A DNA stretch of 64,000 bases from a virus, in IMG/VR virus record IMGVR_UViG_3300045988_129625, positions 1-64,000 of that record, one strand, 5' to 3'. A program made the position numbers and the translations under genes. The notes under the pieces are model-generated. The model was not told where the DNA came from. It saw nothing but the letters and a program-made list of their open reading frames with translations, and did no database searches. Of the stretch, positions 751 through 47,592 are shown one piece after another. The stretch's first letter is position 1. Every line of letters begins with the position of its first letter.

Positions 751-857
751 GCGGCGCCTTGGGCTAAGGCCTGCGGTTGTAGGTGGAACGTAGGTCGGAG
801 CAGAGCCGGAACAGTTTATTGTGGAACTAAAAAAAATAAAAAGGAGGAGATAGCGAT

Positions 858-938: not shown

Positions 939-980
939 GTGAGAAAAATTTCTTCATTAATTTTCTTATGCTTTAGACAG

Positions 981-1010
981 AATGCTCCCATCTGCGAAGA
1001 TCGGAGCATT
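981..1010 (+). terminator. stable hairpin, candidate intrinsic terminator/processing structure
   Basis: AATGCTCC(981-988)/GGAGCATT(1003-1010) perfect 8-bp stem, inner ATCT/AGAT with GCGA (GNRA) tetraloop, followed by TTGCTTTAT. Confidence 0.4.
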
Positions 1011-1017
1011 TGCTTTA

Positions 1018-1062
1018 TGGGATTCATGGTGCGGTAGGCTGGTTCGATTCCGGCGATCTCAC
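1018..1062 (+). ncRNA. tRNA-like minihelix (acceptor stem + T-arm, no D/anticodon arms)
   Basis: T-arm GCTGG-TTCGATT-CCGGC (1038-1054) with canonical GGTTCGATTC T-loop; 3' strand GATCTCA (1055-1061) pairs 7/7 (2 G-U) with TGGGATT (1018-1024); discriminator C1062; only 13 nt between 5' strand and T-arm. Confidence 0.3.
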
Positions 1063-3024: not shown

Positions 3025-3070
3025 AAAGGAGCGCCGGCCTGTGAAGGTATGTGCTCCTTTGTATTTGTAT
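3025..3070 (+). terminator. intrinsic terminator candidate
   Basis: AAAGGAGC(3025-3032)/GCTCCTTT(3053-3060) perfect 8-bp stem with GC-rich 20-nt loop, then GTATTTGTAT. Confidence 0.45.
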
Positions 3071-6547: not shown

Positions 6548-6625
6548 TTTTCCATGTAAGTTAGTTGCCGGCACTGGTCTGTGAAGATAGGTGTCGTTTT
6601 TTTTATTCAAGGAAGGAGGACAAAG

Positions 6626-14236: not shown

Positions 14237-14899
14237 ATGAACAATTTTGTAATAGATACTCCAGATAATTTCTGGCAAATAAGATGGCTTGACAAGTATA
14301 TGGAGGGCCACAAAGGGTTCATAGCTGGTGGATGTTTTAAGAATATCCTTTCCGGAGAAAAGGTAAAAGATATTGATATTTTCTTTGAAAGCGAAAGCGA
14401 TTTTCAGGAAGCTGTTGATTTGTTCAATGATGAAAAACATCAGAAAGAAGGATGGAAATTTAAGTATAGGAATGAGAAGGTATGCGCATTCCAGAAAGAG
14501 GGAGAAAAGGTATGGGTAGAGTTCATAGAGTCAGAGTTCGGAAAGCCAGAAGAGATTCTCAGGAGCTTCGACTTTACTGTGGCAAAAATGGCCTACTATA
14601 AGGAGCCTAAATACGAAGAAAAGGAAGATGATTATTTTCCATTCTCATCTGCAAGTATAGTAGCATACGAGTACAAACTACTCTATCATGAGAAATTCTT
14701 CGAACATCTTCATATGAAGAGGCTGGTTATTGACGAAAATATCCCTTTTCCAGTAAGTACATGGGAAAGGTCATATAAGTATAAGGGGTATGGTTACAAT
14801 ATGTGTAGGGAGACAAAGAAAAAACTTCTACGGGCTCTTAAAGGTGTAAATGTAGAGGAGGAAGATGTATCTTTGTACACTACTGGAGGATGGGATTAA
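14237..14899 (+). CDS. Pol-beta superfamily nucleotidyltransferase with CCA-adding/poly(A)-polymerase-like head motif
   Basis: IAGGCFKNILSGEKVKDIDIFF matches GGxVRDxLLGxxxxDxDxx (G-[GS], 11 residues, D-x-D) of class II tRNA nucleotidyltransferases; the same spacing also fits the OAS/CD-NTase GS..D.D pattern. Confidence 0.55.
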   Translation: MNNFVIDTPDNFWQIRWLDKYMEGHKGFIAGGCFKNILSGEKVKDIDIFFESESDFQEAVDLFNDEKHQKEGWKFKYRNEKVCAFQKEGEKVWVEFIESEFGKPEEILRSFDFTVAKMAYYKEPKYEEKEDDYFPFSSASIVAYEYKLLYHEKFFEHLHMKRLVIDENIPFPVSTWERSYKYKGYGYNMCRETKKKLLRALKGVNVEEEDVSLYTTGGWD

Positions 14900-19170: not shown

Positions 19171-19572
19171 TTAAGCCAAATTAAATCATTTTGAATCTTT
19201 TTTATTATCAAAAGACATATCTTTGCCCAAAAAAAACAAACATAATGGAAGAAAAAGAGATAAAAGAAGCAATAATCGAGAATAATGCATAACCCATACA
19301 AATCATAAACAATTTGTATTGTATTATGCATAATAGCCAAAAGCTATTCCGATTATTAGCCTAAGTGTTGAAACAAACACTACGTTATTTAAGAATAGAT
19401 AGTTACCTACGGATGTTTGCCCAAGTTCGTAGCTCTAAGGTAAGTGATTAAACAGTTCTGGTATTCAGGAACAGTGTTGCTTACAAAAAAAACCTTAAAT
19501 AACATTGGCGATGGGTACTAACAGAGTTTCACTCTGACTTATGTTGAATAAACATTAAAAACGTTTGTAGAT
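19171..19572 (+). ncRNA. candidate IscB omega RNA / IS200-605 left-end region
   Basis: 400-bp non-coding stretch immediately 5' of iscB; nested hairpin ATGCATAA-ATACAAAT-[cataaaca]-ATTTGTAT-TTATGCAT (19285-19331); TTACCT..AGGTAA/CTACG..CGTAG structure near 19390-19440; CAGAGT-ttc-ACTCTG and ATGTT..AACAT stems just before the ATG. Confidence 0.5.
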
Positions 19573-20799
19573 ATGGTGTACGTACAAGACATAAATGGTA
19601 AACCTATGATGCCTACAACAAGGCATGGTAAGGTTAGGAGACTGCTTAAAGACAAAAAGGCAATCGTTGTAAACCTATGTCCGTTTACCATCAAATTAAT
19701 GTACGTAACATCTGATTACAAACAAGAAATTGTGTTAGGCGTTGATGCTGGTACTAAACATGTTGGTCTATCGGCTACAACGAAAAGCAAAGAACTTTAC
19801 AGCAGTGAAGTTATTCTTAGAAATGATATCGTAGATCTTTTGTCTACCAGAAGGGAGCTACGAAGATCAAGACGAAATAGATTGAGATATAGAAAACCTC
19901 GTTTTGATAATAGAATAAAAAGTAGGCGTCCGGGATGAGTAGCACCTTCGGTGAAATACAAAGTAGACGCCCATATTCGTGTTATTGACAATGTATGTTC
20001 TATATTACCAATATCTCGTATTGTTATCGAAGTAGCTCAATTTGATACTCAAAAGATTAACAATCCTAATATATCAGGTAAAGAATATCAGGAGGGTGAT
20101 CAACTTGGATTTTGGAACGTTAGGGAATATGTTTTAGCAAGAGATGGACATAAATGCCAGCATTGTAAGGGAAAGTCAAAAGACCCAGTATTGAATGTTC
20201 ATCATATTGAATCACGAAAGACAGGTGGAGATTCCCCATCTAATCTTATTACCTTATGTGAAACTTGTCATAAAGAATACCATAAAGGTAATATAGATTT
20301 AAAGATCAAACGGGGATCGTCGCTTCGCGACGCAGCCGTAATGGGAATAATGAAATGGAGATTGTATGAAGAACTAAGGTCTAAATACAACAGAGTTTCT
20401 ATGACTTTCGGTTATGTTACAAAATACAATAGGATTAAACATGGTATTGAAAAATCTCATGTTTTCGATGCATTTGTTATTTCTAAAAACTTTGATGCTA
20501 TAAGGTTAGGATATTATTATAAAGTAAGATTAGTAAGAAGACATAATCGTCAGATCCATAAACAAAAGATTCCAAAAGGAGGGATAAAAAGACCAAATCA
20601 ATCTCCTTTTGAAGTTTTTGGTTTCCGATTGTTTGATAGGGTTATGTTTGAAAACAGTTATTATTTTATATTCGCAAGGCGTAAAACCGGTAGTTTTAAT
20701 ATTCGAGATATTGATGGTAAAAACCAAAGAGATATTACATACAAGAAATTGAAATTATCAAGGTGTAAACGCTTTATGGTACAAAAGGAAATGGATTGA
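19573..20799 (+). CDS. iscB: IscB RNA-guided nuclease (PLMP-RuvC-I-bridge helix-RuvC-II-HNH-RuvC-III) interrupted by one in-frame TGA at 19936-19938
   Basis: PLMP-like N-term (KPMMPTTRHGKVRRLLK), RuvC-I LGVDAGTKHVGLS, Arg-rich bridge helix RRELRRSRRNRLRYRKPRFDNR, RuvC-II IVIEVAQFD, HNH CQHCKGK..NVHHIESRK..LCETCH, RuvC-III SHVFDAF; ORFs 19573-19938 and 19951-20799 are in the same frame, separated only by TGA + 12 nt. Confidence 0.85.
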
Positions 20800-40170: not shown

Positions 40171-40953
40171 TCATATCGTAAAATTAAGTGTTTTTTCTAA
40201 TATCAGATATTCAGTATGAACTTTACTTCCGCCATCATCTACCAAGTCCAAATTAATATAAGCTGTATATGATACATGATGATCACCAGGAGCAGGACGT
40301 TTCATTTCTGGTAAGAACATAGAATTTAAACCTTGGCCAGACCATGATTCTGGATATGGCAAAGGTGTAAAGTCGGCATCTGTACATCTTACAACCCAAG
40401 TAAGATTAGGATCTGCCCTAACTATTCTATCATGAGGTCCATCAATTACAAGATCTGGCATCTCATATTGGTAACTATCATAATTAAGGACAATAGGATC
40501 ACCAAAGTTTACACCGTATATAGCAGCAGGTGGAGTAAAGCTTGTTATTAAAAAAGTTCTATTAACCCTATTGGTTGTTCTTAGTGTAAACTCATCAGAT
40601 GCTATCACACTTACTCTAAATCCATAATAAGGAGAGGTTGTTAAAGCAATAGCAAGAACCACTGAATCCTGTTCAAGCAATTCCTCTGTCGTATCAACCT
40701 GACTATCGATCTCTTGCCTATCTTCCATTGGAACACCGCCTTGGACACTTATGGAATCCAGCCGTTCTTTTTTAGACAGAAAGATAAATTGCCCACCCTG
40801 TGGAATGGTGCCTACTTTCTTTCCTTCTACGATTACCCCCATCCCTATTTGAAATCTTCGTCTCATGATTTTTGTTTGCAAGATAGCAATAATTGACAAC
40901 ATAAAAGAAACCGGTTCTCTATCATCTCTGACTGAGAACCGGTAAGAAAACAA
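40171..40953 (-). CDS. hypothetical protein (260 aa), possibly structural
   Basis: ORF, first gene of the minus-strand module. Confidence 0.6.
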   Translation of the reverse strand: MFSYRFSVRDDREPVSFMLSIIAILQTKIMRRRFQIGMGVIVEGKKVGTIPQGGQFIFLSKKERLDSISVQGGVPMEDRQEIDSQVDTTEELLEQDSVVLAIALTTSPYYGFRVSVIASDEFTLRTTNRVNRTFLITSFTPPAAIYGVNFGDPIVLNYDSYQYEMPDLVIDGPHDRIVRADPNLTWVVRCTDADFTPLPYPESWSGQGLNSMFLPEMKRPAPGDHHVSYTAYINLDLVDDGGSKVHTEYLILEKTLNFTI

Positions 40954-47562: not shown

Positions 47563-47592
47563 AAGCCATCTAACTTCTCAGTCTGATGGCTT
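47563..47592 (-). terminator. hairpin terminator for the upstream minus-strand gene
   Basis: AAGCCATC(47563-47570)/GATGGCTT(47585-47592) perfect 8-bp stem; A-run on + side = U-run on the minus transcript. Confidence 0.45.

Follow-up and report, generated by a model that had tools for sequence, protein, structure and literature searches.

An Apparently Undescribed Family of tRNA-Like Minihelices between the Genes of Unrelated Phages

Known tRNA-Like Elements and the Minihelix at 1018–1062

tRNA-shaped structures that are excised by RNase P and RNase Z, thereby setting the ends of neighboring RNAs, include those of tRNA punctuation, the MALAT1 mascRNA, and the TMERs of murine herpesvirus 68 (MHV68). 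Synthetic minihelices consisting of an acceptor stem and a T arm are minimal substrates for RNase P, the CCA-adding enzyme, EF-Tu, and alanyl-tRNA synthetase (AlaRS). In plant mitochondria, mRNA ends are generated where RNase P and RNase Z cut t-elements, which were found via the motif GGTTCRANYCC (Forner et al. 2007, PMC1920247), and the excised t-element can bear a non-templated C or CCA (PMC1920247). The tRNA-like domain of the M. smegmatis YrlA RNA is cut by RNase P and receives CCA in vivo (Chen et al. 2014, PMC4201824), and some YrlA RNAs are encoded by phages (PMC4201824). Here, we analyze a related type of element in a 64,000-nt stretch of viral DNA (IMG/VR record IMGVR_UViG_3300045988_129625, positions 1–64,000; hereafter referred to as the window), in which positions 1018–1062 of the + strand combine a tRNA acceptor stem with a T arm (type A). 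Phage csAssE-Sib (OR575929, 151 kb, human gut) shares about 94% identity with the window, and the region of the element is found at one end of its linear record, among hypothetical proteins.

The 5′ acceptor strand of type A, UGGGAUU (1018–1024, corresponding to tRNA positions 1–7), pairs with the 3′ strand GAUCUCA (1055–1061), which is followed by the discriminator C (1062). The acceptor pairs are, in order, U-A, G-C, G·U, G-C, A-U, U-A, and U·G; the stem was called perfect in a preliminary description of this DNA, and although all seven positions do pair, two of them are wobbles (G3·U70 and U7·G66). The T arm (1038–1054) has a 5-bp stem, GCUGG/CCGGC, and a canonical UUCGAUU loop. A 13-nt linker (CATGGTGCGGTAG, 1025–1037), composed of CAUGGUG and six further nucleotides, takes the place of the D arm, the anticodon arm, and the variable loop. 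These 13 nt between the 5′ strand and the T stem leave no space for a D or anticodon arm, and because both arms are missing the element cannot decode. The discriminator is followed by ACA in the DNA, that is, CCA is not encoded. CAUGGUG is constant in all type A copies recovered from related phages, and the next five nucleotides are variable and unpaired (GGU is replaced by AGC, AAC, or AAU); the GG of the linker is a candidate mimic of G18-G19 of the D loop.

Such an arrangement occurs twice in the window. The motif GGTTCGATTC-N5-ATCTCAC has two occurrences (1041–1062 and 2286–2307) as compared with 0.11 expected, and a scan for a canonical T arm with an abutting 6–7-bp acceptor stem found exactly two sites in the window versus 0–1 per shuffle (mean of about 0.13). 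The second site belongs to a larger paralogue at 2247–2307 (type B); both this copy and the large family presented below were missed in the preliminary description, which pictured a single element.

By analogy, t-elements are the closest functional counterpart of the mechanism that we propose. Similar to the phage element, they are non-decoding, combine a T-arm motif with an acceptor-like stem, and adjoin protein-coding genes, and the motif that led to their discovery is also present here (GGTTCGATTCC at 1041–1051, between the open reading frames (ORFs) 858–938 and 1086–1490). However, they are organellar, have no sequence homology to the phage family, and are irregular cloverleaf remnants lacking a common linker motif, whereas the phage elements are uniformly 44–45 nt long, share an invariant (C)AUGGUG linker, and often occur more than twice or twice in a genome. 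In addition, cleavage is established for t-elements, whereas the phage elements are known from sequence alone. The structures of tRNA punctuation, mascRNA, and TMERs differ in another way: they are full tRNAs or near-cloverleaf mimics and are eukaryotic, whereas the phage elements represent the acceptor/T-arm half and reside in bacterial viruses. The synthetic minihelices share the 12-bp coaxial helix and the T loop; they are linker-free laboratory constructs, whereas the phage elements are natural, carry a conserved 12–13-nt linker, and are located within operons.

The tRNA-like domain of transfer-messenger RNA (tmRNA) also has an acceptor stem, a T arm, and a GG-bearing analogue of the D loop, and lacks a D stem and an anticodon arm. 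Types A and B and a copy from an unrelated contig (L035) further resemble tmRNA and tRNA-Ala in having G3·U70 between G2-C71 and G4-C69. On the other hand, the phage element has no tag ORF, pseudoknots, P2 helix, or encoded CCA, and its discriminator is C or variable rather than A. YrlA is likewise non-decoding and combines a T arm with an acceptor-like stem; however, it has a Ro60-binding stem, a D arm, and a neighboring rsr (Ro60) gene, none of which was seen for the phage element. A Y RNA was rejected as an explanation based on the absence of both a D arm and any Rfam match at the gathering or a relaxed threshold, and no Ro60/TROVE domain was found in the 20 neighboring ORFs scanned.

More generally, neither tRNAs nor tmRNAs were predicted in the window by ARAGORN (0 genes of each kind), and Rfam models at gathering thresholds matched only a HEARO RNA elsewhere (19330–19522). 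A relaxed Rfam search of 700–2400 (E-value up to 10) gave no tRNA-clan match; its only match was a 17-nt T-arm hit to beta_tmRNA with 9.8 bits, as compared with a gathering score of 84, and an E-value of 2.3. Neither ARAGORN nor Rfam called 1018–1062. With regard to the canonical features of a tRNA, the 7-bp acceptor stem on a 5-bp T stem with a UUCRANY-type loop is present at 1018–1062; a D arm and an anticodon arm with a 7-nt loop are not, and the central arms of type B and of a third paralogue (type C) have loops of 4–5 nt. A decoding tRNA or a tmRNA was rejected on these grounds, considering the lack of an ARAGORN call, the lack of a tag reading frame and pseudoknots, and the restriction of the Rfam match to the T arm.

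The family is not in Rfam 15, and full-text literature searches did not turn up a report of such elements in phages. A catalogue from 2023, with about 10,000 candidate RNAs of phages, mentions tRNA-like candidates in general, and this family may be among them. The family is apparently an undescribed form of tRNA mimicry, which would serve as a signal for processing or recognition. Organelles and eukaryotic viruses are already known to employ tRNA mimicry in RNA processing; what is apparently new here is a compact, uniform, anticodon-less tRNA half that is repeated between genes of many unrelated phages.

A T arm together with the 3′ acceptor strand is also the usual content of att cores that target tRNA genes. 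The preliminary description raised as an alternative that the element is such a core, in which the phage attachment site (attP) duplicates the 3′ half of a tRNA gene of the host for site-specific integration, and it proposed to compare host tRNA 3′ ends. We examined 185,579 representative genomes, one per species, for exact matches only, and none of the 61 matches lies in a tRNA gene predicted by ARAGORN (0/61); the sole true match comes from a Veillonella metagenome-assembled genome into which a phage contig had been binned. Furthermore, the complementary 5′ acceptor strand is present as well, up to three paralogues occur in relatives and two in this window, and the inspected 50 kb of the related record carry no integrase annotation. 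The attP idea did not survive this comparison and is now extremely improbable.

A Minihelix Family Supported by Covariation

Cross-lineage pattern scans required the linker motif and the T loop and placed no constraint on either acceptor strand. The same 44–45-nt unit was detected at no fewer than 120 loci outside the csAssE clade, in unrelated phages of 34–69% GC from many metagenomes and some isolate genomes. It consists of a 6–7-bp acceptor stem, (C)AUGGUG plus about 6 nt, a 5–6-bp T stem with a UUCGAUU loop, the 3′ strand, and one base; the acceptor and T stems, stacked on each other, form a 12-bp helix capped by a tRNA-type T loop. Stem sequences are wholly different among lineages yet complementary. 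In 22 representatives, 6.4 of the 7 acceptor positions pair, as compared with 2.97 when partner strands are taken from other lineages, and the T stem is fully paired (5/5) in 21 of these 22 versus 5.5% of mismatched combinations. ARAGORN called none of the family examples checked as a tRNA.

A covariance model (R1) was built from 15 training sequences, all of them from other lineages, with the csAssE clade excluded. With filters off, R1 detected window positions 1019–1061 with 29.7 bits (E-value = 5.9e-5), which is the sole significant match in the 64 kb (the next E-value is about 10). Nothing below an E-value of 0.09 was found by R1 in 0.45 Mb of bacterial DNA that had been fetched for another purpose. 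On the phage loci it gave 67 matches at E-values up to 0.1 and 47 at E-values up to 0.01, regaining the training examples as well as previously unseen paralogues nearby on the same strand: contig L217 has four copies with the acceptor stems AGCAGG, GCUAGG, GACAGG, and AACAGG, and L254, L228, L230, L239, and L226 have two each. Type B, which shares its stems with the family and has a different linker, was not detected by R1. In the model-based alignment of 38 distinct rows, which is fitted to the structure of the model, 93.4% of cells pair versus 55.4% after shuffling and 44–57% in slid controls, and all 12 pairs, including the five pairs of the T stem, show two-sided changes. Based on the 12-bp stack, the linker, the loop type, the length, and the co-oriented intergenic location, all of which are found at 1018–1062, type A is almost certainly a member of this (C)AUGGUG-linker minihelix family.

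Within the csAssE clade, a motif scan of IMG/VR yielded at least 119 related gut-phage contigs, most of which have two copies 850–1250 bp apart, and BLAST recovered 38 distinct type A, 44 distinct type B, and 29 distinct type C sequences from these loci. The different linkers of the three types cannot be aligned by MAFFT; stems were compared on a trimmed, gap-free core (34 distinct cores from types A, B, and C and L035), in which 92.2% of cells are paired versus 75.6% after shuffling (none of 500 shuffles was as high) and 33–59% when the partner is slid by 1–3 columns. Six of the 12 pairs in this core show two-sided changes, and the discriminator is C in 33 of the 34 cores. Individual variants are consistent with the pairing. 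A type A variant in L063 (CGGGAUU/AAUUCCA) retains it despite three changes on the 3′ side (GAUCUCA to AAUUCCA), and the type A T-stem variants GUCGG/CCGGC, GUCGG/CCGAC, and GUCGG/CCGGU are all paired. Type C is a sample selected by no search pattern: RNAalifold alone predicts its acceptor stem, central arm, and T arm, its helices are 99.7% paired with all six supported, and six pairs are changed on both sides. The minihelix of an acceptor stem and a T arm lacking D and anticodon arms, which had been described from a single copy, is thus borne out by covariation both within the clade and across unrelated phages.

The minihelix is the minimum-free-energy (MFE) fold of the commonest type A variants (−10.1 kcal/mol, pair probability 0.92), and in the variant of the window it lies 0.5 kcal/mol above an alternative fold (pair probability 0.46). 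This ViennaRNA alternative (GGU/AUC plus GUG/CAC) was rejected: the changes of GGU are uncompensated in relatives, whose MFE fold is the minihelix. RNAalifold proposed another alternative for type A (UGGUG with CAC.CA), all pairs of which are invariant, and hence uninformative.

The covariation also bears on the idea that these elements are decayed tRNA genes or recombination linkers, which would have no RNA function of their own and would be kept as cores promoting cassette exchange. Mosaic boundaries in the csAssE clade fall at the elements, and different genes follow type A among relatives. In contig L102, types A and B are fused within the T loop and the intervening genes are deleted. Type B is truncated at its 5′ end in L013 and missing from L206, and the window itself contains a degenerate look-alike (774–818; see below) whose relatives show uncompensated changes and deletions. 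Such placement at mosaic boundaries resembles the cassette shuffling described for PeSL motifs in T4-type phages. However, pseudogenes would not keep pairing via two-sided changes at all 12 pairs across unrelated phages, nor would they keep a uniform 44–45-nt length with an invariant linker, and the orientation follows transcription in the members examined. Decay or recombination as the sole explanation is, in our opinion, very unlikely.

A Possible Processing Signal and Competing Roles

Types A and B occupy the only sizeable intergenic gaps in a run of short, tightly packed + strand ORFs. Type A had been placed between a small-peptide gene and the next ORF, which holds: it is preceded by a 26-aa ORF (858–938, +) and followed by a 134-aa ORF of unknown function (1086–1490, +) whose start codon is 23 nt past the discriminator. 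Type B is followed by an 82-aa ORF (2328–2576, +) starting 20 nt past its discriminator. Where members of the family were examined in clear intergenic gaps, their orientation is that of the flanking genes. The previous ORF stops 0–17 nt ahead of the element in the tightest-spaced lineages, and the next ORF begins 13–43 nt past it in most lineages examined. The neighboring proteins are mutually unrelated and of unknown function.

For RNase P, RNase Z, and CCA-adding enzymes, a 12-bp stack of acceptor and T stems that carries a T loop is the smallest structure needed. That the element is a substrate of RNase P, the CCA-adding enzyme, or EF-Tu, as supposed in the preliminary description, is plausible in view of this enzymology. 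The acceptor/T-arm stack is also the only part common to all types of the element. The absence of CCA would permit cleavage by RNase Z, and the genuine tRNAs of the phage likewise lack an encoded CCA. Considering that the stack is the minimal determinant, that CCA is missing, and that the phage tRNAs are alike in this respect, cleavage of both edges by host enzymes is the simplest reading. Our hypothesis is that the element may be a processing signal cut by host tRNA end-processing enzymes, by which early operons would be punctuated. We assign this reading, which the preliminary description had listed as an alternative, a probability of roughly 50%, with the known tRNA-like systems as its model. 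The element would be transcribed within an early polycistronic mRNA and would present the minimal structure recognized by the host enzymes; RNase P would cut at its 5′ edge and RNase Z after the discriminator, after which CCA could be added to the excised minihelix by the CCA-adding enzyme. Upstream and downstream cistrons would be parted by these cuts. For this phage, one would expect a terminator-like hairpin at the end of the upstream cistron, whether transcription stopped there or read through, and a short A-rich leader of 20–30 nt on the downstream one. The selected product could be either the cleaved mRNAs or the released minihelix. If RNase P and RNase Z cut these elements, phages would be using host tRNA-maturation enzymes to punctuate and stabilize early operons, an expression layer that, if true, is currently overlooked by gene callers and RNA annotators. 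The 45-nt substrate is easily synthesized, has a clear covariation model, and occurs in highly prevalent human-gut phages, which makes the hypothesis directly testable.

Several observations weigh against this hypothesis. We infer the mechanism from the anatomy of the element. Position 1:72 is unpaired in 27 of the 34 distinct clade cores, position 7:66 is often unpaired family-wide, and G is seldom the +1 base, all of which might make RNase P cleave less efficiently or at another position. In most other lineages, the element follows the upstream ORF at a distance of 0–5 nt and no protective hairpin precedes it, so that the mRNA would have an exposed 3′ end after a 5′ cut. The constant CAUGGUG linker and the conserved discriminator suggest recognition beyond the needs of cleavage; since the search patterns specified both CAUGGUG and the T loop, the constancy of the two among lineages is partly circular, and some L217 paralogues have non-canonical T loops (CUCGCUU and CUCGUUU). 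As to the fold, nearest-neighbor energies give no signal relative to shuffles (z of about 0), and thermodynamics alone predicts the acceptor stem of type B (P = 0.9) and not its T arm (P = 0.01–0.14). The nucleotide diversity of type C (about 0.07–0.085) is not lower than that of its flanks; low diversity was consequently rejected as a gauge of purifying selection, and support for the structure rests on compensatory change rather than on invariance.

The strict conservation of features that cleavage alone should not require points to the main rival, in which the excised, CCA-tailed minihelix would be a trans-acting tRNA mimic, a decoy or sponge for host factors that recognize the acceptor end or the elbow. 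Its position in operons would then only provide expression in the absence of its own promoter. Candidate targets include abortive-infection toxins of the MenT/AbiEii nucleotidyltransferase or toxSAS/CapRel type, which modify the acceptor end, acceptor-stem nucleases, and AlaRS, EF-Tu, or SmpB. In addition to the T loop, CAUGGUG, and the discriminator, which are kept far more strictly than cleavage should demand, this idea would account for several paralogues per genome with differing acceptor stems and for the location in an early accessory-gene region near the genome end, among genes of unknown function. The tRNA-Ala/tmRNA-like signature G2-C71, G3·U70, and G4-C69 in types A and B and the unrelated contig L035 is also compatible with it, and so is a nucleotidyltransferase-like ORF in the window (14237–14899), which has a weak PHROG match (phrog_1614 "nucleotidyltransferase," E-value = 1.4e-9) and a homologue annotated as "polyA polymerase/CCA-adding enzyme" in the related GenBank record. 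This ORF had been put forward as a CCA-adding-like enzyme 13 kb downstream, a claim that was rejected on finding no match in Pfam or in a search of PDB sequences, and the link between it and the element is weak.

The signature itself is unevenly distributed. G3·U70 is present in types A and B and L035, where U70 was fixed by the first search pattern, and is not found in type C or in most other lineages: type C has G3-C70, some A/B variants have A3-U70 or G3-C70, and the stems elsewhere are unrelated. AlaRS identity was thus rejected as a unifying feature. Moreover, a trans-acting RNA does not need a tight and consistent start-codon spacing, no partner protein is consistently adjacent, and the same processing steps as in our preferred hypothesis would still be required. 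We regard a trans-acting mimic as a rather unlikely, though the foremost, competing role; if it were true, the elements would be candidate RNA decoys against tRNA-directed defense. A more specific proposal is that many phage lineages possess free-standing "top-half" tRNAs which are excised, CCA-tailed, and active in trans, those of types A, B, and L035 being possibly charged with alanine. Possible roles would include a decoy for defense enzymes that attack the tRNA acceptor end or a tmRNA-like interference with ribosome rescue. We consider this proposal doubtful; if true, such RNAs would be a new class of RNA-based counter-defense and would exemplify in nature the minihelix that has long been suggested to be the ancestral half of tRNA.

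Another rival is an uncleaved cis-regulatory or stabilizing structure which would stay in the mRNA and control neighboring genes. Variants of this idea include a tRNA-like 3′ cap protecting the upstream cistron after a single 3′ cut, a 5′ protector or activator of the downstream cistron, and a site for a tRNA-binding regulator. The short, fixed distance of 13–43 nt to the next start codon is consistent with such a role, the abutting upstream stop in the tightest-spaced lineages (0–5 nt) fits a 3′-terminal protective structure, and several downstream genes have a weak Shine-Dalgarno sequence or none. On the other hand, a generic stable hairpin would suffice for this purpose, which leaves the T loop, the 12-bp stack, and the discriminator across 34–69% GC unexplained, and the downstream genes are mutually unrelated. 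Such an uncleaved structure is unlikely in our view.

Paralogues, Upstream Hairpins, and Surrounding Features

Type B (2247–2307, +) is 61 nt long and differs from type A in having extra, dispensable arms. Its 5′ strand is AGGGAUG (2247–2253, +), and its 29-nt linker (+) contains a possible mini-hairpin (2254–2262) and a 7-bp central arm with a 4-nt loop (2264–2281); the T arm CCUGG-UUCGAUU-CUGGG (2283–2299, +), the 3′ strand UAUCUCA (2300–2306, +), and the discriminator C (2307) follow. Among type B sequences, pair 3:70 is GU in 41, AU in 2, and GC in 1, and pair 4:69 is GC in 41, GU in 2, and AU in 1. Every change in the central arm is compatible with pairing, and this arm is deleted in L041 and L074 (between direct repeats GCCGGT), indicating that it is dispensable. 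RNAalifold suggested an alternative fold for type B (distal UGGG/CUCA; UCAU/AUGR) that was rejected, as its pairs are invariant and the distal strand is lost in L013 and L068, which retain the minihelix; in addition, a variant in L016 replaces G4-C69 by A4-U69, a two-sided change favoring the proximal pairing. The GenBank record of csAssE-Sib (OR575929) has a 52-aa hypothetical coding sequence over type B (L001 2541–2699, corresponding to window positions of about 2165–2320). This coding sequence is unlikely to be real, because the G run before the 5′ strand varies from three to six G and a 14-nt deletion is present in two relatives.

Type C was found by BLAST in relatives, about 1.9 kb upstream of type A and beyond the window (L139 1593–1667). 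It is composed of the acceptor strands UGGUUGU/GCAACCU, a 32-nt linker with one central arm, the T arm UCCGG-UUCGAUU-CUGGA, and the discriminator C, and forms a three-way junction. It is preceded by two interleaved helices (AGUACG/CGUACU and GCCUGUA/UUACGGGC), both with compensatory changes. Both helices are supported, but an H-type pseudoknot was not adopted: with only 0 and 2 nt in the loops that join them, it is doubtful on steric grounds that the two could form at once. The helices may represent either a pseudoknot with very short loops or alternative or unusual folds. A conserved non-coding leader of ~420 nt in L139 (about 1100–1590) extends from the motif TATGCTTTAGAC to type C, and the same 12-mer is present at window positions 967–978, 2 nt ahead of the hairpin preceding type A. 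This leader motif may represent a promoter or a signal for processing, or it may belong to a larger non-coding RNA. A repeated promoter-like motif was not supported: TATGCTTTAGAC has two exact copies in the window, the second of which is apparently inside coding sequence, and matches with up to two mismatches are not enriched.

A fourth version, in the unrelated contig L035/L130 (47% GC), combines the acceptor sequence of type B with a wholly different T stem. A 60-nt relative was also observed in another gut-phage lineage (the L207–L224 group; e.g., L207 5337–5396), with a 9-bp perfect acceptor-like stem (AGCUAAUAG/CUAUUAGCU) and CAUGG in the loop of a central hairpin; here the next ORF is about 300 nt away rather than 13–43 nt. 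Both copies in L254 (352–396 and 1096–1139) are followed by the same 30-nt trailer with the palindrome GAGAAUAUUCUC, that is, the repeated unit exceeds the minihelix. In the window, a look-alike of type A is located at 774–818 (+) and reads CGGUUGU, a 13-nt linker, GUCGG-AGCAGAG-CCGGA, and ACAGUUU-A, with a GC-rich hairpin (756–770) in front and the 26-aa ORF 858–938 downstream. It was rejected as a further copy: spacing and T-stem sequence are the same, but the loop is AGCAGAG and relatives have uncompensated changes and deletions. It looks like a decayed copy or a different element.

A strong hairpin precedes type A. The preliminary description gave it as 981–1010 with a plain 8-bp stem and a GCGA tetraloop; the hairpin is real, but it spans 980–1011 (+) and consists of 9 bp, a 1×1 C·C mismatch, 4 bp, and the GCGA loop, followed by UUUGCUUUAU. 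Three of its pairs show two-sided changes among relatives. The hairpin upstream of type B (2201–2230, +) has 8 bp, a 1×1 mismatch, 4 bp, and a GUGA loop and is followed by UAUUUCUGUAUC. The same architecture recurs at 6569–6596 (+), 40910–40943 (−), and 47563–47592 (−), and a similar hairpin is present at ~3027–3060 (+); a scan of the window for this architecture found 5–6 hairpins versus about 0.35 per shuffle. The shape is fixed, with a basal stem, a 1×1 mismatch, a 4-bp apical stem (often RUCU/AGAU), a GNRA loop, and a U-rich tail, which suggests a protein-recognized terminator or processing site. Good U tracts follow the hairpins at 6569–6596 (TTTTTTTTATTC), 40910–40943 (−), and 47563–47592 (−), and those before types A and B have weaker, interrupted tracts. 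Compared with an intrinsic terminator, 980–1011 has a strong stem and an interrupted tract (UUUGCUUUAU), and a simple terminator scan made no call there; scans for promoter and terminator consensus sequences revealed nothing specific at either element. In a distant relative (L137, 25% GC), such hairpins with U runs occur in the absence of the tRNA-like part. Because the architecture recurs, also apart from a tRNA-like part in this relative, the hairpin is, to judge from these comparisons, the usual terminator-like element of the phage and separate from the minihelix family. That it is a separate recurrent module, one that is missing from most family members in other phages, was also overlooked in the preliminary description.

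Two further features of the window were observed. Tandem repeats are present at 1–78 (23 bp × 3.4, 100% identical) and 62–419 (102 bp × 3.5, 96%), just upstream of the first ORF and near the genome end of the related record; they may be iterons, a regulatory region, or a terminal-repeat region. The HEARO (IscB-type omega) RNA at 19330–19522 (+) scored 113 bits and is followed by an ORF (19951–20799, +; 282 aa) with RRXRR and HNH domains, which may encode a truncated IscB-like nuclease carried by the phage.

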